DNA of 63,342 nucleotides, filler included, from 4 parts of 4 records of this genome joined end to end with filler, not necessarily neighbours in it, one strand, 5' to 3'; shown: positions 47,774-56,336, numbered from the whole stretch's first letter. The notes: generated by a model from the sequence alone, not told the origin. Made by a program: numbers and translations.

Positions 47774-48274
47774 TTAGGTTTTCCCCCGTCCAACCATGAT
47801 GATGTCCTTGTCCTGTTCACTTCCGGCAAAAGCATCGAACTGTCGGCCGATCTTTTTGAACACGGTCAGACAATGTTCAAGTTCTTCATCGGTAACATCG
47901 GCAAAAATCTGGGCGCGGACACCTTGTATGACCGCCTGAATCTGTCGAAGCGCCGGTTCGGCCTTTTCGGTCAGGTGAACCGTTTTTGCCCGCCGGTCAT
48001 CGGGGACTTCGCGCCTTTCGATCAATCCCTTTTCCTCCAGCCAGTCCAATGTCCGCACCAATGTCGGTCCCTGCACCCCGGCAATACGCGCCAGTTCCTT
48101 TTGCGTCAGGTCATGATCGGTCGTGCTGAGCCGAAACAGGATGATCCAGCGCGCCTCGGTCAGGATAAAGGGCGATAAACGCCGGTCGACTTCCGCACGC
48201 CATTGCCGGGCAAGCATGCCCAGCCAGAAACCGAACTGTTCACGCGATGCATTGCTATCTTTGGAAATTGTCAT
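47774..48274 (-). CDS. MarR family regulator, SlyA-like
   Basis: RQWR..D.RL, TQKELA...G...PTLVRTLD.LE, DRRAK. Confidence 0.92.
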   Translation of the reverse strand: MTISKDSNASREQFGFWLGMLARQWRAEVDRRLSPFILTEARWIILFRLSTTDHDLTQKELARIAGVQGPTLVRTLDWLEEKGLIERREVPDDRRAKTVHLTEKAEPALRQIQAVIQGVRAQIFADVTDEELEHCLTVFKKIGRQFDAFAGSEQDKDIIMVGRGKT

Positions 48275-48333: not shown

Positions 48334-48489
48334 CGTCAAGGAAACCAAAGCCAAAAGACGCATCTTTCGCAGAACCAACCAGAACACGAAGAATCAGCCC
48401 CCTATCTCCCGCGGGCGGTTTCGCGTTACCATATGAAATATAATGCTTTCCATTCACTAATCATAATACAGGGCAAAATCAGGGGACGT

Positions 48490-49833
48490 ATGGAGCAATT
48501 CTGGAATCCCGACCAGCTCGTGATCTGGCTTGAACAGGCAGCCGCATGGGTGGACAACAATATCTTGCTGGTTCCGATCCTGTTACAGATCGGGGCATGT
48601 TTGCTGTCGGTGATCCCTGCCCTGTTGCTGCGCAGGCCGCTTTCGCGCCAACTGGCGCGCTTGCAAAACTGGCGGGCGCTTTTGCACTATGCCGGGTTCC
48701 GTCGGTTGCTGGCGGTTTTACCCGATCTGGCGTTTCCGATCATTCTGGTTCTGCTGATCTGGTTTATTGATGCGGTCGCGATACAGGCGGGGCTGCGGCA
48801 CAATATCCTGCGCCTTGTCGCAAGCCTTCTGAATGCGTGGATTTTCATCCGTCTGGGCACAGCGGTGGTGAATGATCCCGTCTGGGCCCGAAGTATCGCC
48901 ATCATCGCATGGGGGCTGGCCGCCCTTAACATTGTCGGCTGGCTTGATCCGGCAATTGATCTGCTGGACAGCCTTGCCCTTCATATCGGGCAGTTTCGGA
49001 TATCGGTGTTTGGTATCCTCAAGGCAATGCTGTCTTTGGCGATCCTGCTTTGGGTCGCGTCATTTGCCTCGCGCATTTTCGAACAACGCATCCAGAAGGT
49101 TCACCGCCTGACGCCATCGGTTCAGGTGCTTATGTCCAAGCTTCTGAAACTTGTGCTGCTGTCGATTGCGGTTTTGTTTGCGCTTTCGACCATCGGTGTC
49201 GATCTGACCGCGCTTGCTGTCTTTGGTGGTGCCATCGGTGTCGGCATCGGGTTTGGTCTGCAACGGATTGTCGCCAATCTGATCAGCGGCGTGATCCTGT
49301 TGCTGGACCGGTCGATCAAGCCGGGCGACGTGATTGCGATTGGCGATACATTTGGCTGGATTCAGTCGCTTGGCGCGCGTTACACCGCCGTTCGCACCCG
49401 CGACGGTACCGAATTCCTGATCCCCAACGAAGACCTTATCACCAATCAGGTGGAAAACTGGAGCCACTCGGACGTCAAATTGCGCCTGAAGGTTCCGGTC
49501 GGTATTGCCTATCGTTGCGATCCGCATTTCGCGATCAAATTGTGCAATGAAGCCGCAGCAAAATGTGCGCGCGTTCTGGATAATCCCGGCCCGAACACAC
49601 TGCTACGCGGCTTTGGCGATAATTCGGTCGATCTTGAAATCCGCTTCTGGATCACGGATCCACAAAACGGACGTGGTAATATCATCAGCGAGGTATTGCT
49701 CAATGTCTGGGATAGCTTCAAGGAAAACGAGATCGAAATTCCGTTCCCGCAGCGCGACCTTCATCTGCGCAGTTCCGATGGTACGGTAAATATCGAAATC
49801 CCCGGAAATGCCACAGAAAACACTGCCCGCTAA
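48490..49833 (+). CDS. MscS family mechanosensitive channel
   Basis: GAIGVGIGFGLQ, IKPGD.I, IPNE, FGDNSVD, IEIPFPQRDLH. Confidence 0.95.
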   Translation: MEQFWNPDQLVIWLEQAAAWVDNNILLVPILLQIGACLLSVIPALLLRRPLSRQLARLQNWRALLHYAGFRRLLAVLPDLAFPIILVLLIWFIDAVAIQAGLRHNILRLVASLLNAWIFIRLGTAVVNDPVWARSIAIIAWGLAALNIVGWLDPAIDLLDSLALHIGQFRISVFGILKAMLSLAILLWVASFASRIFEQRIQKVHRLTPSVQVLMSKLLKLVLLSIAVLFALSTIGVDLTALAVFGGAIGVGIGFGLQRIVANLISGVILLLDRSIKPGDVIAIGDTFGWIQSLGARYTAVRTRDGTEFLIPNEDLITNQVENWSHSDVKLRLKVPVGIAYRCDPHFAIKLCNEAAAKCARVLDNPGPNTLLRGFGDNSVDLEIRFWITDPQNGRGNIISEVLLNVWDSFKENEIEIPFPQRDLHLRSSDGTVNIEIPGNATENTAR

Positions 49834-49872
49834 AGTAATATTTCCAAGGTTTTTGCTTTAACAACCCCTCAT

Positions 49873-49890
49873 TCAGGTTGCTGTCAGGTT
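49873..49890 (+). promoter_or_regulatory. 11-bp-period direct repeat, OmpR/PhoB-family-type box
   Basis: TCAGGTT-gctg-TCAGGTT upstream of the hemolysin-like operon. Confidence 0.55.
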
Positions 49891-49934: not shown

Positions 49935-50633
49935 ATGCTTCACCTGAATTATAATGAAAATGGTTTCCCCGCCGCCAAGCTCAGCTTCCAGAAACGCGGT
50001 TTTCTGGATCATCTGCAGATGCGTGCCTGTGCCATTTCGGTGCTGACACTTCTGGCGACAGAACGCCCCGAAGTCGAAACATTCATCGCCAATATCTATG
50101 CCGATGCCTATGACGCCGCGATGCGCGTGCAATATGGCAGCCTGATGAGTGTCCGCGACGATGCCGGACGGATCGTCGCCGCCCTTGGTTTCCGGTCAGC
50201 CGGGCATGGGCCGCTGTTTCTTGAACAATATCTGCCCGCGCCAATCGAAGTGATCCTTGGTGTACCGCGCCATCAGATTGTCGAGATCGGCAATCTGGCG
50301 TCCTCGGGTGGTGGGGCGTCGTCCTTCCTGTTTGCGGCACTGTCTGCCTATCTGCACCATAACGGCTTTAAACAGGCGGTTGTGACCGGCACCGACAGTA
50401 TCGAAAAACGCCTGCGTAAAATGGGCCTCAAGCCCGTTCGCCACGCCCATGCCGATCCATCATGCCTGACGGAAAACGAAATCGACTGGGGCCGGTATTA
50501 CGACACGTGCCCGCATGTTCTGTCTGGTTCGGTCGAACATGGTTATCGCCGCCTTCAGACATTGCTGGGTGCAGAATACACCCACATGCGCCCGCGCCTT
50601 TATCCCCATCTGCAACATAACGGCCAGAAATAA
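49935..50633 (+). CDS. 'thermostable hemolysin' family (GNAT-like) protein
   Basis: AALG.R.A...LFLEQYL..PIE, R.QIVEIGNLAS, WG.YY..P.V. Confidence 0.88.
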   Translation: MLHLNYNENGFPAAKLSFQKRGFLDHLQMRACAISVLTLLATERPEVETFIANIYADAYDAAMRVQYGSLMSVRDDAGRIVAALGFRSAGHGPLFLEQYLPAPIEVILGVPRHQIVEIGNLASSGGGASSFLFAALSAYLHHNGFKQAVVTGTDSIEKRLRKMGLKPVRHAHADPSCLTENEIDWGRYYDTCPHVLSGSVEHGYRRLQTLLGAEYTHMRPRLYPHLQHNGQK

Positions 50634-50635
50634 TC

Positions 50636-52654
50636 ATGCTGTTCGAATGCATCCGCACCCATAACGCCGATCAAGTCGCGCTCCGCGAAGGCGATGATAG
50701 AGTAACCTATGGCGACCTCTCCGACCTGATCGACGCACGTTGTCTTGAACTTGCAGATGTCGATGTACTGGGTATAGCACTTGATAACGGGATCGACTGG
50801 CTGGTCTGGGACCTTGCCGCCCTATCGGCCGGTATTGTATGCGTCCCGATCCCGCCATTTTTCACCCGCGATCAGATCAATCACACAATTGTGACCGCGG
50901 GCATCACCCACATGCTGACGGCTAATGGAATGGCGGAAACAGGGCAGTCGCGTTCGCCCGACATCCCCGATGGCACGGCAAAAATCACCTTCACATCCGG
51001 CACCACCGGTACGCCAAAGGGCGTTTGCCTGCCCGCATCGGCGATGATCACTGTTGCGTCTTCGATCCACGCGATGCTGGGCGATGATTTTGCTGGCACC
51101 CATGCCTGTGTGCTGCCACTTGCAGTACTTCTGGAAAATGTCGCGGGGGTTTATGCCGGTCTTCTGGCCGGGTGTACCATTACCCTGACACCGCTTGGCC
51201 AGTTCGGGCCGCAATATCAGGGCCTGCACGAAATCCTTAAGGATACCCGCGCGACATCGGTCATTCTGGTGCCTGAAATCCTGCGTGCGCTGATGATGCT
51301 GGTCATCCGCAAGGGTCGCCTTCCTGACCTTAAATTCATTGCGGTTGGTGGATCGCGTGTTGATCCTGCCCTGATTGCCAAGGCCCGCCATATCGGGCTT
51401 CCGGTTTACGAAGGATATGGTCTTTCGGAATGCGCATCGGTCGTTTCAATGAATGTACCGGGCAAAGATAAGCCCGGCACCACCGGAACGCTTTTGCCCC
51501 ATGTAAAGGCCGAGATTTCCAACGATGAAATCATCATCGAAAATCCCGGTTTCCTTGGCTATGTCGGCGAAGCAGCACCGGCCTTTCTTGCAACCGGCGA
51601 TCTGGGGCAGATTGATGACGATGGTTTCGTCTGTGTGACTGGTCGATGCAAAAATGTCCTGATCACATCGTTTGGGCGCAACATTTCCCCCGAATGGCCC
51701 GAAGCCGCCATTTTGGCCCAGCCAGGCATCTATCAGGCCATGGTCTTTGGCGATGGGGAACCGGAACTAAGCGCCCTGATCGTTCCGACCGGTCCGACCG
51801 CCGATGTCAGTGCCGCGGTTGCCGCGGCCAATGCTGGCCTGCCCGATTACGCACACATCAAACATACCCGCATCGTTGCCCCCTTTACGGTCGAAAACGG
51901 CTGCCTGACAGGCACCGGACGCCCGCGCCGCGAGGCGATTGCCAAACTTTACACATCCCCCTTGTCCGTCCCGGAGAAAACCATGAATTTTTATGATCGC
52001 CTTGTTGCCGAAACCGCCGAAGCCCGCGCGTCCCTTTATCACGTTCCCCAGCTTGTTGATGGCCTGCAAGGTCGCATTTCACGGTCAACCTATGTCGCCT
52101 ACCTGACGGAGGCATATCACCATGTCAAACACACCGTTCCCTTCCTGATGGCAATGGGATCGCGTATGCCAGATGAAAAACGCTGGCTGCACAAGGCGAT
52201 CATTGAATATCTCGAAGAAGAAGAAGGCCACGAAGAATGGATTCTCAATGATATCGAAGCCGCCGGTGGTAACCGCGAAGCCGCCCGCCAAGCGATACCG
52301 AACCTCGAAACCCAGGTGATGGTTGCCTATAACTACGACTATATCAGCCGTAAGAACCCGGTCGGTTTCCTTGGTATGGTCTTCATGCTTGAAAGCACAT
52401 CCACCCAAATCGCCAGTCAGGGTGCGGATGCCGTCATGACCGGCCTTGATTTGCCGAAATCAGCATTCAGCTATCTGTTTTCGCACGGCACCCTTGATCT
52501 TGAACACATGAAATTCTTCGAAAAGACCGTCAATCAGGTCACCGATCCGGCTGATCAGGCCGCCATCATCGAAGTCGCGCAAAACACCTTCCGGCTGTTT
52601 GCCAATCTGTTTGCGGCGATCCCGCATGAAGGACAACGTAAAAATGTTGCTTGA
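50636..52654 (+). CDS. AMP-binding enzyme fused to a heme-oxygenase-like (CADD/TenA-type) diiron domain
   Basis: FTSGTTGTPKG, YEGYGLSE, TGDLG, GRCKN; from 51983 AYHHV, EEEEGHEEW, MLE, HGTLDLEH. Confidence 0.9.
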   Translation: MLFECIRTHNADQVALREGDDRVTYGDLSDLIDARCLELADVDVLGIALDNGIDWLVWDLAALSAGIVCVPIPPFFTRDQINHTIVTAGITHMLTANGMAETGQSRSPDIPDGTAKITFTSGTTGTPKGVCLPASAMITVASSIHAMLGDDFAGTHACVLPLAVLLENVAGVYAGLLAGCTITLTPLGQFGPQYQGLHEILKDTRATSVILVPEILRALMMLVIRKGRLPDLKFIAVGGSRVDPALIAKARHIGLPVYEGYGLSECASVVSMNVPGKDKPGTTGTLLPHVKAEISNDEIIIENPGFLGYVGEAAPAFLATGDLGQIDDDGFVCVTGRCKNVLITSFGRNISPEWPEAAILAQPGIYQAMVFGDGEPELSALIVPTGPTADVSAAVAAANAGLPDYAHIKHTRIVAPFTVENGCLTGTGRPRREAIAKLYTSPLSVPEKTMNFYDRLVAETAEARASLYHVPQLVDGLQGRISRSTYVAYLTEAYHHVKHTVPFLMAMGSRMPDEKRWLHKAIIEYLEEEEGHEEWILNDIEAAGGNREAARQAIPNLETQVMVAYNYDYISRKNPVGFLGMVFMLESTSTQIASQGADAVMTGLDLPKSAFSYLFSHGTLDLEHMKFFEKTVNQVTDPADQAAIIEVAQNTFRLFANLFAAIPHEGQRKNVA

Positions 52655-53429
52655 TGGAAAATCCGTTTTCCTGACGGGCGCGACTGGCGGCATTGGCATG
52701 CCACTGGTCAACCTGCTGATCGAACGCGGGTCAAATGTCGTTGCCTATGACCGCACGACGCAGGGCAACCTGATGGAAAGCATCGATACGACCTGCAAGG
52801 CATTGCGTGAACACACACCCGACATCCTGATCAATCTGGCTGGGATCAATGATTTCAATCATGCCGAAGATCAGGATTACGACGCGCTTGTGACGCTGAA
52901 CCTTTTGGTGCCAATGCGCCTGTGCCAGGCCGTTCTTCCGGCCATGCGCAAACGCGGTAGCGGTCAGATCGTCAATATCGGATCAATGACCGGATTGATC
53001 CCGTTGCCCCATATGACCGGCTATGTCGCAGCCAAATCCGGGCTTAAGGGATATAGCGATGCGCTGCGTCGTGAACTGTCCGGCACGGGCATCACCATAA
53101 GTCACATCGCCCCGCGTGCGGTTCGTACCACCATGAACAGCGGCAAGGCAGGGCTGCTTAACCGTCGCACAAATGTCACCGAAGACGATCCACGTGACGT
53201 TGCCCGTCAGATCGTCAATGCGATTGAACAAGACAAAACCGATGTTCGGATCGGCTGGCCGGAACGGCTTTTTGCCCTGATCAATGCCGTCATACCGAGC
53301 ATCGTCGACAGGGGACTTCGTAAAAACACCACCATCGGCGAAGAAATCCTCACGGCCGAGCAGGTAGTTGCACCAATCCCCCTGATCGCCAACAAACAGG
53401 ACGCCAACCCAAGGAGCCACCCGGCATGA
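52644..53429 (+). CDS. SDR family oxidoreductase
   Basis: TGATGGIG, NLAG, NIGS, YVAAK, IGWPER; overlaps both neighbours. Confidence 0.92.
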   Translation: MLLDGKSVFLTGATGGIGMPLVNLLIERGSNVVAYDRTTQGNLMESIDTTCKALREHTPDILINLAGINDFNHAEDQDYDALVTLNLLVPMRLCQAVLPAMRKRGSGQIVNIGSMTGLIPLPHMTGYVAAKSGLKGYSDALRRELSGTGITISHIAPRAVRTTMNSGKAGLLNRRTNVTEDDPRDVARQIVNAIEQDKTDVRIGWPERLFALINAVIPSIVDRGLRKNTTIGEEILTAEQVVAPIPLIANKQDANPRSHPA

Positions 53430-54094
53430 AAATCACCTGTTTTGCCATGATATGCGCCTTTGCGCTTGGCCTGCCTTTGTCTGCCAATGCCGACACGGCC
53501 AATAACGAGGCCATGAATGGCGTTGCCCATCTGCAGGAAGAATGGGCCCGCATCAAGTACCAGATGACGGATGAAAAACAGCAGCTTGATGCCATTCACC
53601 AACTTGAAACCGAGGGCGAAAGTCTGCTGAACCTCTATCCGGATAGTCCCGAAGTCATGATCTGGCAGGGTATTGTCCTGTCGACCGATGCCGGTATCGT
53701 GCGCGGCATTTCCGCCCTTGGCAAAGTAAACGACGCGCGCGATTTGTTTGAAAAGTCGATTACCCTCGATCCAACAGCACTTGATGGATCGGCCTATACG
53801 TCACTGGGATCGCTTTATTATCAGGTGCCCCCATGGCCGCTTGCCTTTGGCAGTGACAGCAAGGCCGAAGAATTCCTGAAAAAGGCTTTGGAACTTAATC
53901 CTGACGGGATTGACCCTAACTATTTCTATGGCGATTTCCTGCTTCAGAATAATCATTACACCGAAGCCAAGGTTTATCTGGAAAAAGCATTGAACGCACC
54001 CGAGCGCCCCGGCCGCGCATCGGCGGATGCCGGACGTCGGGCGGAAATAGCCAAGGCACTAAATGAAATCGCGCAGGAAGTTTCCAAAAACTAA
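53426..54094 (+). CDS. exported TPR protein
   Basis: Signal peptide, GSAYTSLGSLYYQVP.WP..FG, PDGIDPNYFYG, AD.GRR. Confidence 0.88.
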   Translation: MKITCFAMICAFALGLPLSANADTANNEAMNGVAHLQEEWARIKYQMTDEKQQLDAIHQLETEGESLLNLYPDSPEVMIWQGIVLSTDAGIVRGISALGKVNDARDLFEKSITLDPTALDGSAYTSLGSLYYQVPPWPLAFGSDSKAEEFLKKALELNPDGIDPNYFYGDFLLQNNHYTEAKVYLEKALNAPERPGRASADAGRRAEIAKALNEIAQEVSKN

Positions 54095-54123
54095 CCTTGA
54101 CGAACAGCACAATTCCCCAAACG

Positions 54124-54160
54124 AAACAAGGCCGGGGAACACAAACCCAGCCTTGTATTT
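54124..54160. terminator. bidirectional terminator
   Basis: ACAAGGC.GGG...CCC.GCCTTGT between convergent genes. Confidence 0.6.
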
Positions 54161-54178
54161 TGATGCCTTCGGAACACT

Positions 54179-55537
54179 TTAATCGACGATTTCGGTCATG
54201 TCTTTTGGGCCGATTTCGTCTTTCTTTCCGTCTTCGGGCTTGGTTTCAACCTGCTTGGGGGCTGTATCATCGGGTTTTGGCAAATCAAGCAGGGCAGCAA
54301 TTTCAACATCCAGAACGGATTTTCGCGTTTTTTCCAGTTCCACCAGACGTTCGCGCATGGCTCCTGGCCAACCGCCATCGGCATTAACCAGAAGCAACCG
54401 GTCATAATCCAGAAACAGCCCCAGTCTGGACATCAGATCCACCAGCGTGATCCGCGACAGATCGCCTGATAAAAGCCAGCGGTGGCTTTCGGACCGTTCA
54501 ATCAGCTTTTCACGCCGAAGGGCCGCCAAGGCCCAGTTAAGATCCCGCCCGCCCAGCTTGGTTTCGCGCAACATGCGGCGATAGGTCGGCGGTTTGGTTG
54601 CTTCGCGGAAACCATGTTGCAAATATTCCAGAACGCGTAACACCGCGATAATGCGTTCCATATGGCCGGGCACGGCACCCCGCGGATCGGGGATCAGCCC
54701 AGCGGCACGTGCCGCACGCCATTCGGATCGCGCGGCAGCAACCTGTGCGCCCAGCAGCACAACAATCCAGGTCAGATACATCCATAACAGGAAGATCGGT
54801 ACAATCGCCACGGCGCCATAGATCGTCTGATAGGTCGGGAAATTAATAACGTAATACCCGAACCCTTTTTTAAGCGCCTCGAACAATCCAGCCGCCACCA
54901 AGCCGCCCAAAATACCGTCAATGATCACGACAGAACGGTTCGGCATGCCGATAAACAAAAGCGAGAAGGCAATCGAGGATAGCAGGAAAGGGGCCAAAAA
55001 CGTCAATTGCCCGATATGTTCACCCAGCCCGTCGCCCCCGACCATATAGCGCATGGCAAAAATATAGGATGCCACCGAAAGGCTCAGCCCCAGCAACATC
55101 GGCCCGACCGTCAGCAAGGTCCAGAAAACGACGAGTTTCGCCAAAAGTTTGCGCGGAGTGGTAACGCGAAACACATCGTTCATCGCACCTTCGATCGCAG
55201 CAAGCAGCATGACCGCGGTCAAGGCCAGCACAATCGTGCCCACCGCTGTCATCTGGCCGGTATTCTGAAGGAAATTGCTGAGGTAACCTGTCACCTGTTC
55301 GCCAGTTTCGGGCAGAAAATTGTTCAGGACCACGCCCATGATCTGGTCCTTCCACTGTTCAAAAACCGGGAAGGCCGACAATACCGTAAGCGCAACAGCA
55401 AGGAACGGAACCATGGCAAGAAGGGTTGTATAAGAAAGCCCCGCTGCGCGTTCGACGGATTTGTCATGCACAAATCGCATAATGGCGTAGCGCCAAAATC
55501 CAGTGCGGTCCTTAAGTAATTGGCCGATTGGAACCAT
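54179..55537 (-). CDS. YihY/BrkB family membrane protein with C-terminal extension
   Basis: AA.LSYTTLLAMVP, YQTIYGA.A.VPIFLLW.Y..W.VVL.GA; start placed at MVPIGQ. Confidence 0.9.
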   Translation of the reverse strand: MVPIGQLLKDRTGFWRYAIMRFVHDKSVERAAGLSYTTLLAMVPFLAVALTVLSAFPVFEQWKDQIMGVVLNNFLPETGEQVTGYLSNFLQNTGQMTAVGTIVLALTAVMLLAAIEGAMNDVFRVTTPRKLLAKLVVFWTLLTVGPMLLGLSLSVASYIFAMRYMVGGDGLGEHIGQLTFLAPFLLSSIAFSLLFIGMPNRSVVIIDGILGGLVAAGLFEALKKGFGYYVINFPTYQTIYGAVAIVPIFLLWMYLTWIVVLLGAQVAAARSEWRAARAAGLIPDPRGAVPGHMERIIAVLRVLEYLQHGFREATKPPTYRRMLRETKLGGRDLNWALAALRREKLIERSESHRWLLSGDLSRITLVDLMSRLGLFLDYDRLLLVNADGGWPGAMRERLVELEKTRKSVLDVEIAALLDLPKPDDTAPKQVETKPEDGKKDEIGPKDMTEIVD

Positions 55538-55738
55538 TAAACACTTATCCCTGCACGATTTCTGGTTATAGTGTAACTGATCAACAGGATAACGTGACCG
55601 CACAAGATAAAACAGGCCAGATTGACCTTGGCTTCGCTTTGTGTAGGATGCGCCCAATGTCAAATGCCTCCTGTGTGGGCCACAGCTTTGTTCCGCGCTG
55701 CCCCGCACCAGAGAGAGATCGTGGGAACGAGAGGGAAA

Positions 55739-56236
55739 ATGAGCTTTTCCGCCGAAAACATTTCTGGCCTGATGGCTGGCAAGCGTGGCCTGATCATGGG
55801 CGTCGCGAACGATAAATCGATTGCCTGGGGGATTGCGCGTACCGTGGCCGCCGCTGGCGCCGAGGTTGCTTTTACCTATCAGGGTGAAGCCCTTGAAAAG
55901 CGCGTCCGCCCATTGGCGGAGTCTGTTGGCAGCGACACCGTTCTGCCCTGCGACGTGACCGACGCGGCCAGTATGGACGCCGTTTTTGAAACATTGAAAG
56001 AAAAATGGGGCAAGCTGGACTTCGTCGTGCATGCCATCGGTTTTTCTGACAAAAACGAACTGCGCGGGCGCTATGTCGATACCTCGCCGGAAAATTTTGC
56101 GATGTCGATGAACATTTCGGTCTACTCCTTTACCGCGATTGCACAGCGCGCGGAAAAACTGATGACCGATGGTGGTTCGCTTCTGACCCTGTCCTATTAC
56201 GGGGCGGAAAAGGTGATGCCGCATTACAACGTCATG
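55739..56236 (+). CDS. fabI: enoyl-ACP reductase, 5' part
   Basis: GKRGLIMGVAN..SIAWGIA, ISVYSF, P.YNVM. Confidence 0.95.
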
Positions 56237-56336
56237 NNNNNNNNNNNNNNNNNNNNNNNNNNNNNNNNNNNNNNNNNNNNTTAATTAATTAANNNNNNNN
56301 NNNNNNNNNNNNNNNNNNNNNNNNNNNNNNNNNNNN
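56237..56336. other. artificial contig linker
   Basis: N44-TTAATTAATTAA-N44. Confidence 0.99.

Follow-up and report, generated by a model that had tools for sequence, protein, structure and literature searches.

Closest described systems

The subject of this report is a four-gene operon (g1 to g4; positions 49935-54094, plus strand) in a 63,342-nucleotide stretch of DNA, the whole of which is referred to as the window. The operon begins with a gene of the "thermostable hemolysin" (T_hemolysin) family, and partial counterparts of it have been described in Vibrio and Serratia. VCA1111 is dth, the delta-thermostable hemolysin gene of Vibrio cholerae (PMC6474259); it adjoins the ligase gene VCA1110 ("DthC"), to which the relevant section of a 2025 paper still assigns no defined role (PMC12208996). 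A delta-VPH-like gene of Serratia 39006 is described as sharing its operon with genes for a TauD dioxygenase, an AMP-ligase and an MFS pump, and as 184-fold upregulated in an rsmA mutant (PMC4046660). Two regulatory systems also bear on the operon. The PmrA box, according to the section that defines it, consists of two XTTAAY hexamers 5 nt apart and overlaps the -35 element of pbgP, ugd and pmrCAB (PMC10570014), and the BqsR box is given as TTAAG(N)6TTAAG in a paper that also places an RExxE motif in BqsS and an HExxE motif in PmrB of Salmonella (PMC4358008).

In the window, g1 encodes a T_hemolysin protein with a predicted LuxI/FeeM-like fold, g2 an adenylate-forming ligase fused to a heme-oxygenase-like diiron oxidase (HDO), g3 a short-chain dehydrogenase/reductase (SDR) and g4 an exported tetratricopeptide repeat (TPR) protein, and a direct repeat of the PmrA/BqsR type precedes them. 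We read this as a PmrA-type envelope-stress operon whose product would be an amphiphilic, oxidised acyl-amine that the TPR protein would handle in the periplasm, and give this reading as a whole about an even chance of being correct; its regulatory half is likely, and its chemical half is a more tentative proposal. The protein families are known already and the gene set was partly seen before in the Vibrio dth region and the Serratia operon; what appears to be new is the PmrA/BqsR-type repeat upstream of the operon and the eptA-like gene in the same putative regulon. Neither a product for the gene set nor any account of its breadth, of its exchange of HDO for TauD enzymes or of its membership in a PmrA-type regulon together with an eptA-like gene was found in the literature searched; subscription journals and bioRxiv supplements lay outside that search, and a published function could still exist, so that the statement of the initial annotation that no product is assigned holds within those bounds.

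Conservation of the gene set

Of 401 genomes sampled from the whole of the Pseudomonadota, 100 were matched by a g1 profile built from 20 sequences (A1); many of these 100 are just 1.5-3 Mb in size. From the 106 matched places, 40 loci were fetched, chosen non-randomly by length of surrounding sequence and spread of scores. Genes for g1, ligase, HDO, SDR and TPR protein occur in identical order in 35 of these 40 loci, at local G+C fractions of 0.37-0.70, and gene order is likewise identical in all 11 Thalassospira loci. Because the order recurs both phylum-wide and throughout the Thalassospira loci, the arrangement is far beyond chance, and the four genes are a conserved unit, in agreement with the co-conservation that the initial annotation had anticipated. 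The five exceptions comprise a g1-ligase-TauD-SDR locus (L098), a locus with g1, ligase and HDO genes only (L104), one with two tandem g1 paralogues (L105) and two with other gene contexts (L106 and L108).

Genome searches were centred on G402, the genome of a Thalassospira locus (L001) that is 93-99% identical to the window over the parts compared (mscS and g1-g4). A search with the single g1 protein matched 13 of 401 genomes of its class, which is an under-count. Among the 12 class-level loci besides that of G402, ligase and HDO genes are found beside g1 in 11 and an SDR gene also in 10, with a TPR gene adjacent in four and nearby in two more; the twelfth (L040) has a TauD-ligase-T_hemolysin set. 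A search centred on another genome, G001, left PF12261, the g1 protein and 7.8 kb of window DNA unmatched, which is no evidence of absence. G001 shares 40% of 31-mers with the window, yet has no match to the 7.8 kb around the operon, mscS and yihY included, so the shared words must stem from another part of the window.

Regulation of the operon

The direct repeat (49871-49887, plus strand; 63 nt upstream of the g1 ATG) reads ATTCAG-GTTGC-TGTCAG, two related hexamers separated by a 5-nt spacer and repeating with a period of 11, which is the architecture of the published boxes, although its half-site has C instead of the first A of the TTAAG-type half-site. It is presumed to be a binding site of a PmrA-like response regulator. 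Of 62 sources, 26 have the pattern TT[AC]AG-N6-[TG]T[AC]AG ahead of g1, namely the window, 11 loci of Thalassospira and 14 further sources, against a background of 0.019 per scanned window; it is present in 12 of 15 kinase-linked loci. When 12 Thalassospira upstream regions were aligned (mean identity 61%), the invariant columns were those of the repeat, of an element approximately 11 nt downstream, and of the ribosome-binding site.

Pfam scans of 102 flanking open reading frames (ORFs) in 27 loci identified OmpR-family response regulators and HisKA/2CSK_N kinases among the operon flanks in several arrangements. The two-component genes come right after g4 on the same strand in eight loci (L029, L077, L078, L079, L086, L092, L093 and L096) and are divergent from g1 in two others (L084 and L087), and a regulator gene is located just upstream of g1 in L033. 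A QseC/PmrB-like kinase sensor domain is encoded within 15 of 66 sources; the periplasmic part opens with HExxE in eight of ten such kinases, and the Thalassospira kinase discussed below also carries this motif. The best NCBIfam models are PmrA/QseB and QseC/PmrB, all scoring below their equivalog cut-offs (251.5 bits versus 330 for PmrA and 285.8 versus 475 for QseC; for the Thalassospira pair, 202.8 versus 330 and 142.9 versus 475). Judged by sequence, the linked two-component system is of the same family as PmrAB and QseBC, and not a named orthologue of either.

Two Thalassospira genomes (G402 and G404), with g1 proteins 97% and 71% identical to that of the window, were scanned for TTCAGNNNNNTGTCAG, which has five sites in each genome, the reversed controls having one and three. 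The first site is upstream of g1; the second and third are intergenic, between a PepSY-cytochrome b561 operon and the response regulator/kinase operon that encodes the HExxE kinase; the fourth precedes, in each of the two genomes, a gene for an eptA-like phosphoethanolamine-lipid A transferase (443.6 bits with the EptA model for a fragment truncated where the locus ends; 67% identity between the two orthologues). The fifth site of G402, which is inside an ORF, is probably due to chance. With a predicted box common to the operon, the eptA-like gene and a PmrAB-like two-component system, the operon can no longer be regarded as the isolated "orphan" cluster that it was first taken for, and its likely role shifts from a free secondary metabolite to regulated envelope remodelling.

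In G402 (C5:83500-87100; L119 and L122), the genes of the secreted PepSY protein and cytochrome b561 are divergent from those of the PmrAB-like regulator and kinase, with both boxes between them, a layout that we take to resemble the bqsPQRST locus of Pseudomonas aeruginosa. An attempt to assign the Thalassospira regulator by similarity alone failed, as there are three QseC/PmrB-like pairs with 40-44% identity to the pair of L029.

Further links to envelope genes were found in other lineages. Two loci (L095 and L097) have, in order, a regulator, a kinase, a cupredoxin-like gene, two unknown genes, a GT2 glycosyltransferase gene, a DedA gene, an ArnT-like gene and g1-g4, with boxes before the regulator, before the GT2 gene and before g1. 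The cluster, which is probably an undescribed polyprenyl-phosphate-sugar surface modification system, is co-directional in both (L097:831-7850 and L095:8800-15887); the DedA protein matches VTT and the ArnT-like protein is a PMT_2 transferase, and the two members without a Pfam match are about 255 and 232 aa long. In L084, where regulator and kinase are divergent from g1, a box after the kinase gene precedes the GT2-DedA-ArnT-like genes, and all four exact TTAAG-N6-TTAAG sites of the genome fall in that locus. Genome-wide, this strict pattern was in no excess over the reversed-pattern control in G819 or G1040; with counts so near the control, the argument from strict sites is one of clustering at the locus alone.

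The g1 protein

The product of g1 (232 aa; 49935-50633, plus strand) matches PF12261, the T_hemolysin family (155.7 bits versus a cut-off of 27; 1.4e-45), over profile positions 6-173 of 174. The top Foldseek matches of its AF2 model (pLDDT 89.2) are LasI (1.3e-8), TofI, MesI, BjaI, RpaI and FeeM, the E values of the acylhomoserine lactone (AHL) synthases ranging from 1.3e-8 to 6.6e-6. With approximately 160-173 residues aligned, VIA Z scores are 15.8-13.3 for AHL synthases, 12.9 for FeeM and at most 12.9 for generic members of the GNAT superfamily; LasI superposes on g1 with Z 15.8 and rmsd 3.0 over 168 residues, and TofI, BjaI and RpaI with Z 14.9-15.4. The superposed model thus has the predicted fold of a LuxI-type AHL synthase, acyl-chain tunnel architecture included, at an identity of only 10-16% to the AHL synthases and FeeM, and it has an extra N-terminal beta-hairpin region of approximately 30 residues that these enzymes lack. 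E117 (within EIGNLA) is invariant among the aligned g1 homologues and presumably occupies the site of the catalytic Glu of LuxI- and FeeM-type enzymes. The Pfam family Autoind_synth had no g1 match at E up to 0.01, T_hemolysin being the sole family reported, which lowers the claim of g1 to membership in the LuxI family but not its likeness in mechanism.

Because its modelled fold resembles LuxI-type AHL synthases and FeeM, g1 is classified as an acyltransferase and not as a toxin; no signal peptide was found in it. The initial annotation had called the protein GNAT-like, without a signal peptide and unlikely to be a toxin, and the structural comparison, carried out against GNAT, LuxI and FeeM folds, agrees, LuxI and FeeM being the closest within the GNAT superfamily. 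That g1 might be a genuine pore-forming or lytic hemolysin, with the other genes as unrelated neighbours, is an idea that goes back to the family name, which, in the sections concerned, derives from hemolysis by cloned Vibrio genes (PMC4046660, PMC6474259). It appears extremely improbable for a protein with an enzyme fold, a conserved Glu of catalytic type and no signal peptide, the gene of which is linked to a ligase gene across the phylum, the Vibrio dth/VCA1110 pair included. "Thermostable hemolysin" is a virulence label that recurs in lists of virulence genes, whereas the fold points to a biosynthetic acyltransferase.

The likeness to AHL synthases, among them the CoA-dependent enzymes BjaI, RpaI and MesI, also raises the possibility of a system akin to quorum sensing, in which g1 would be a LuxI-type synthase acting on an acyl-CoA that g2 supplies and the oxidase and SDR modify, the TPR protein and adjacent QseC-like kinase would sense the signal, and the signal would induce its own synthesis. 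The regulator and kinase genes that follow g4 in the same direction in eight loci fit such a scheme, in which the box of g1 would close a feedback loop, as does the strong control of the Serratia relative by RsmA and its position beside an efflux pump, as far as that operon is described. Even so, the scheme is unlikely: besides the missing Autoind_synth match, there is no kinase nearby in 51 of the 66 sources, the kinases carry the iron-type HExxE motif, and the box is also found before the eptA-like gene, with the GT2-DedA-ArnT-like genes having locus and boxes in common with the operon, which is the pattern of an envelope-stress response.

Other sequences added little to the identity of the family. 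An ESM Atlas look-up of g1 returned only further "thermostable hemolysin" clusters, and record entries identical to the g1 homologues of eight sampled loci (from genera that include Pseudomonas, Massilia, Marinobacter, Glaciecola and Salinimonas) are named only "thermostable hemolysin" or "hypothetical protein". Long open frames in GC-rich loci gave the appearance of a fusion of g1 with the ligase, which frame walking exposed as an artefact. Paralogues of T_hemolysin occur in other settings, such as the tandem pair of L105 (7950-9321) and a gene of L106 (8066-10645) beside radical SAM (DUF3641) and methyltransferase genes.

The ligase and the oxygenase

The N-terminal part of g2 (50636-52000, plus strand) is a ligase of the ANL superfamily, in the acyl/aryl-CoA ligase class (PF00501, 151 bits, 5.2e-44; PF23562, AMP-binding_C_3), its best NCBIfam and PDB relatives being fatty-acid, oxalate and o-succinylbenzoate CoA ligases. 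The nearest relatives of g2 are in Thalassospira, at 83-85% identity. Alignment of 26 homologues shows conservation of the core motifs TSGTTGxPKG (A3), YGLSE (A5), TGD (A7) and GRxKN (A8 hinge). At position A10, the window and most of the relatives have Arg and four loci (L092, L095, L097 and L098) have Lys, so that the charge is retained.

The C-terminal part (52001-52654, plus strand) matches PF14518, Haem_oxygenas_2 (4.6e-25). Foldseek matches of its AF2 model (pLDDT 92.7) are led by 3dde (Sden_3740; TM 0.84) and CADD/CT610 (TM 0.82), followed by TenA, HmuO, UndA (TM 0.76) and PqqC, and a profile of the domain retrieved 3dde (2e-23) and CADD (6e-7) from the PDB. The six metal ligands, three His and three carboxylates in the set ExxH, E, HxxxDxxH (E74, H77, E131, H162, D166 and H169 in domain numbering), align with the ligand motifs of CADD and are invariant in 20 of 20 sequences, which upholds the initial description of a heme-oxygenase-like diiron domain; an invariant AYHHVxHT helix is an added feature of this clade. 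In a 50%-identity library, the clade is represented by 214 sequences at E<=1e-30 and by 1316 at E<=1e-10, in both fused and free forms.

The fusion of ligase and oxidase, first presented as a defining feature, turned out to be variable: of 61 sources having both, 29 encode them as one protein and 32 as two genes. The oxidase itself can be replaced, a TauD-type dioxygenase standing in for the HDO between ligase and SDR in L098 (8568-11708). In L040 (7925-10924), the TauD-ligase-T_hemolysin set is followed by genes for a flavodoxin-like reductase, an O-methyltransferase and an amidase. As L098, L040 and the Serratia operon all carry TauD, the recurring core is the T_hemolysin-ligase pair plus an O2-dependent iron oxygenase; by gene content, the oxygenase step is conserved and the enzyme type interchangeable. 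A natural exchange of HDO and TauD enzymes at the same pathway step is of enzymological interest, and the HDO of g2 would add a new substrate class for heme-oxygenase-like diiron enzymes.

HDO enzymes are known chiefly from natural-product pathways, at least in the portions of the literature covered, and the variant cassettes hold a methyltransferase, an amidase or an efflux pump; the operon might therefore make a free secondary metabolite (an antibiotic, a siderophore-like compound or a surfactant) with no role in the envelope of its producer. Such a product is quite unlikely, since occurrence in a quarter of the genomes sampled, in fixed order and with many small genomes among them, is atypical of patchy secondary metabolism, and the box is held in common with eptA-like and two-component genes.

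The dehydrogenase and the TPR protein

The g3 protein (52644, or 52626, to 53429, plus strand) is a classical SDR (PF00106, adh_short; 2.2e-34 to 2.3e-34), the translation of which contains the cofactor motif TGATGGIG, NIGS with the catalytic Ser, and YVAAK of the YxxxK type. It scores 220.9 bits against NF006565, below the cut-off of 238, and the solved structures closest to it are those of FabG 3-oxoacyl-ACP reductases and 3-hydroxybutyrate dehydrogenases.

The g4 protein (222 aa; 53426-54094, plus strand) matches TPR families and has a signal peptide of approximately 22 residues (53426-53491). Sec-type N-termini are present in 20 of 20 aligned homologues, with a conserved mature core; on this evidence the TPR protein is predicted to be exported, as had been proposed for it. 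Among natural proteins of solved structure, its best match is BstC, a periplasmic TPR protein that binds sterols (7t1s; 8.2e-9, over approximately 90 residues of generic TPR), and its score with the NCBIfam model of BstC is 36.1 bits versus a cut-off of 350. Complex prediction for the TPR protein (25-219) and the periplasmic part of the kinase (34-154) of L029 gave a score of 0.04 versus a mark of 0.34, informative neither way.

A ligase, an oxygenase and a FabG-like SDR resemble components of acyl-CoA degradation, and a V. cholerae transposon mutant in the ligase gene beside dth is described, in the passage concerned, as altered in its pattern of odd-chain fatty-acid elongation (PMC12208996). 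The operon might accordingly be a catabolic or detoxifying route by which a fatty, aromatic or xenobiotic acid is activated, oxygenated and dehydrogenated, with g1 as an accessory N-acyltransferase. This appears very unlikely: the flanking ORFs surveyed show no conserved thiolase, hydratase or transporter, 35 of the 40 loci retain the exported TPR partner, many genomes of just 1.5-3 Mb have kept the operon, and its regulon partners are envelope genes.

Proposed function

The reading that we prefer, an envelope-stress operon of the PmrA type, may be set out as a series of steps. A PmrA-like response regulator, the kinase of which has the HExxE motif of the iron-sensing PmrB, would bind the repeat upstream of g1 and activate g1-g4. 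By its family, the ligase of g2 would activate a carboxylic acid, most likely a fatty acid, to the acyl-AMP or acyl-CoA; oxidation of that acyl unit or of its partner may fall to the diiron domain, or to a TauD dioxygenase in some genomes, and the alcohol and ketone so formed may be interconverted by the FabG-like SDR. The g1 protein, as its fold suggests, would join the acyl group to an amine to give an amphiphilic N-acyl compound, aminolipid-like or a cationic lipid. The exported TPR protein could bind or carry this compound in the periplasm or at the outer membrane, where it would act in parallel with the modification of lipid A by phosphoethanolamine or sugar. If made in Escherichia coli, such an amphiphile would account for cloned family members scoring as "hemolysins". 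More specifically, the operon could be making an undescribed outer-membrane amphiphile, such as an oxidised N-acyl amine or a cationic aminolipid, a suggestion that we put forward tentatively, at somewhat less than even chances. The activate, transfer, oxidise and reduce pathway of the initial annotation, which left the choice between an unknown metabolite and an envelope modification, retains the support of co-conservation, the g1 fold, the diiron ligands and the export of the TPR protein; of its two outcomes, the free metabolite is now less likely than envelope remodelling.

Several observations weigh against this reading. The loose pattern has two matches in the window versus 0.78 expected, a count that 17 of 100 shuffles reach, so the weight of the window site rests on its conservation and not on its count, and 36 of the 62 sources, a large small-genome clade among them, lack a box upstream of g1 at the stringency used. 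Strict TTAAG-N6-TTAAG sites number 17 in G819 versus 18 for the reversed control, and 14 versus 7 in G1171, a modest excess. The Thalassospira regulator, 43% identical to the operon-linked regulator of L029, was assigned by common boxes and not by orthology, and the connection of box, regulator and operon is inferred from DNA motifs, as are the substrate, acceptor and product from the proteins. Within the proteins, the catalytic A10 lysine of the ligase is replaced by Arg in the g2 protein of the window, and the similarity of g4 to BstC is weak and generic.

Were the reading correct, PmrA-type systems would have a further route, beside phosphoethanolamine and aminoarabinose, by which to reshape the Gram-negative surface; this route would be present in roughly a quarter of the Pseudomonadota, and the decades-old "delta-thermostable hemolysin" phenotype would be the by-product of an enzyme. 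The links of box, eptA-like gene and ArnT-like gene suggest an operon-dependent lipid, or a surface change under iron or cationic stress. A gene set this frequent in the genomes sampled and without a known product is in any case a gap in envelope biology.

Gene boundaries and neighbouring genes

The four genes are flanked by an MscS-like channel gene (48433-49833), upstream of g1, and a YihY/BrkB gene (54179-55474; PF03631, 8.8e-58) convergent with g4, as read from ORFs and Pfam matches. The tight coupling first reported for the genes between mscS and yihY, and their families, stand: the gap between g1 and g2 is 2 bp, g3 and g4 overlap by 4 nt, and the overlap of g2 and g3 is 11 nt with ATG 52644 as the g3 start, or 29 nt with ATG 52626; a TTG at 52599 is probably too far upstream to be the start. 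The likely start of g1 is ATG 49935, which is preferred because the alternative TTG at 49878 falls within the conserved regulatory repeat.

Between the convergent g4 and yihY genes, a GC-rich hairpin followed by a short T run (54126-54156) is predicted to fold at -20.9 kcal/mol (z -2.74) and, by its position, could serve both genes, probably as a bidirectional terminator. The claim that a terminator closes the operon was borne out in part: the hairpin scores in the folding analysis but is absent from the list of a simple terminator scan, and RNA-library contigs run across it. Contigs from the RNA libraries of three studies cover the operon, and two from one run (50118-52243 and 52222-54492) span all three gene junctions and read through the hairpin; because they cross the hairpin and may include carried-over DNA, they settle neither co-transcription nor termination.

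Upstream, a MarR-family regulator gene (47774-48274, minus strand; 124.8 bits with the NCBIfam SlyA equivalog versus a cut-off of 120) is divergent from the MscS-like gene. Downstream, a run of bases translated as X, at approximately 56265-56330, breaks both a FabI-like enoyl-ACP reductase gene (55622-56284) and the ORF on the other strand. MscS-family channel genes occur near T_hemolysin genes in three unrelated contexts (the window, which is of the Thalassospira type; L091:6590-7432; L108:6504-7370), which may be a coincidence. In the small-genome clade without the box, the TPR gene is followed by one for a phosphatase of the SpoIIE/PP2C type that has a long N-terminal region (L081:2529-4163; L102:12481-14124), and a glutathione S-transferase gene precedes g1.

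Comparison with known systems

The Vibrio dth region and the Serratia genes or1352-or1355 resemble the window operon in pairing a T_hemolysin gene with an AMP-ligase gene, to which Serratia (or1352-or1354) adds TauD. As far as they are described, both cassettes differ from it in having no HDO, SDR or exported TPR protein, and that of Serratia includes an MFS efflux pump.

LuxI-type synthases and FeeM are the best structural matches of g1, and the neighbouring acyl-CoA ligase fits the CoA-dependent subgroup of LuxI; the low identity, the missing Autoind_synth match, the extra N-terminal region and the absence of a LuxR-type receptor nearby set g1 apart. The oxidase domain shares with the HDOs CADD/CT610, UndA and the uncharacterised Sden_3740 (3dde) a seven-helix fold (TM 0.82-0.84) and the ExxH, E, HxxxDxxH ligand set, but its clade is distinguished by the AYHHVxHT helix and by fusion to, or position beside, an ANL ligase. 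CADD, for its part, has a sacrificial Tyr.

The enzyme set is not mentioned in the available sections of PMC10570014 or PMC4358008, the latter having no matches there for hemolysin, AMP-binding or short-chain dehydrogenase. Nevertheless, the regulation predicted for the operon is most like that of the PmrA/PmrB regulon (pbgP/arn, ugd and pmrCAB) and of BqsRS (CarRS) of P. aeruginosa: two hexamers 5 nt apart, as in XTTAAY or TTAAG(N)6TTAAG; an OmpR-family regulator and a kinase that score best against PmrA/QseB and QseC/PmrB models; a periplasmic HExxE; and as partners an eptA-like gene here and ArnT-like, GT2 and DedA genes in other lineages. As in pmrCAB, biosynthetic genes are in line with the two-component genes in some genomes, where gene layout suggests co-transcription. 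The differences are that regulator and kinase score below the cut-off of every named equivalog, and that TTCAG replaces TTAAG as the half-site in Thalassospira, in L029 and in some loci of the Pseudomonas type.

A parallel is offered by AlmEFG, which modifies Vibrio lipid A with glycine: there, surface charge is altered by an adenylate-forming enzyme together with an acyltransferase, under the control of a PmrA-like two-component system. AlmEFG employs a carrier protein and an LpxL-type transferase, whereas the operon of the window includes no carrier protein gene and its ligase is of the acyl-CoA ligase class.

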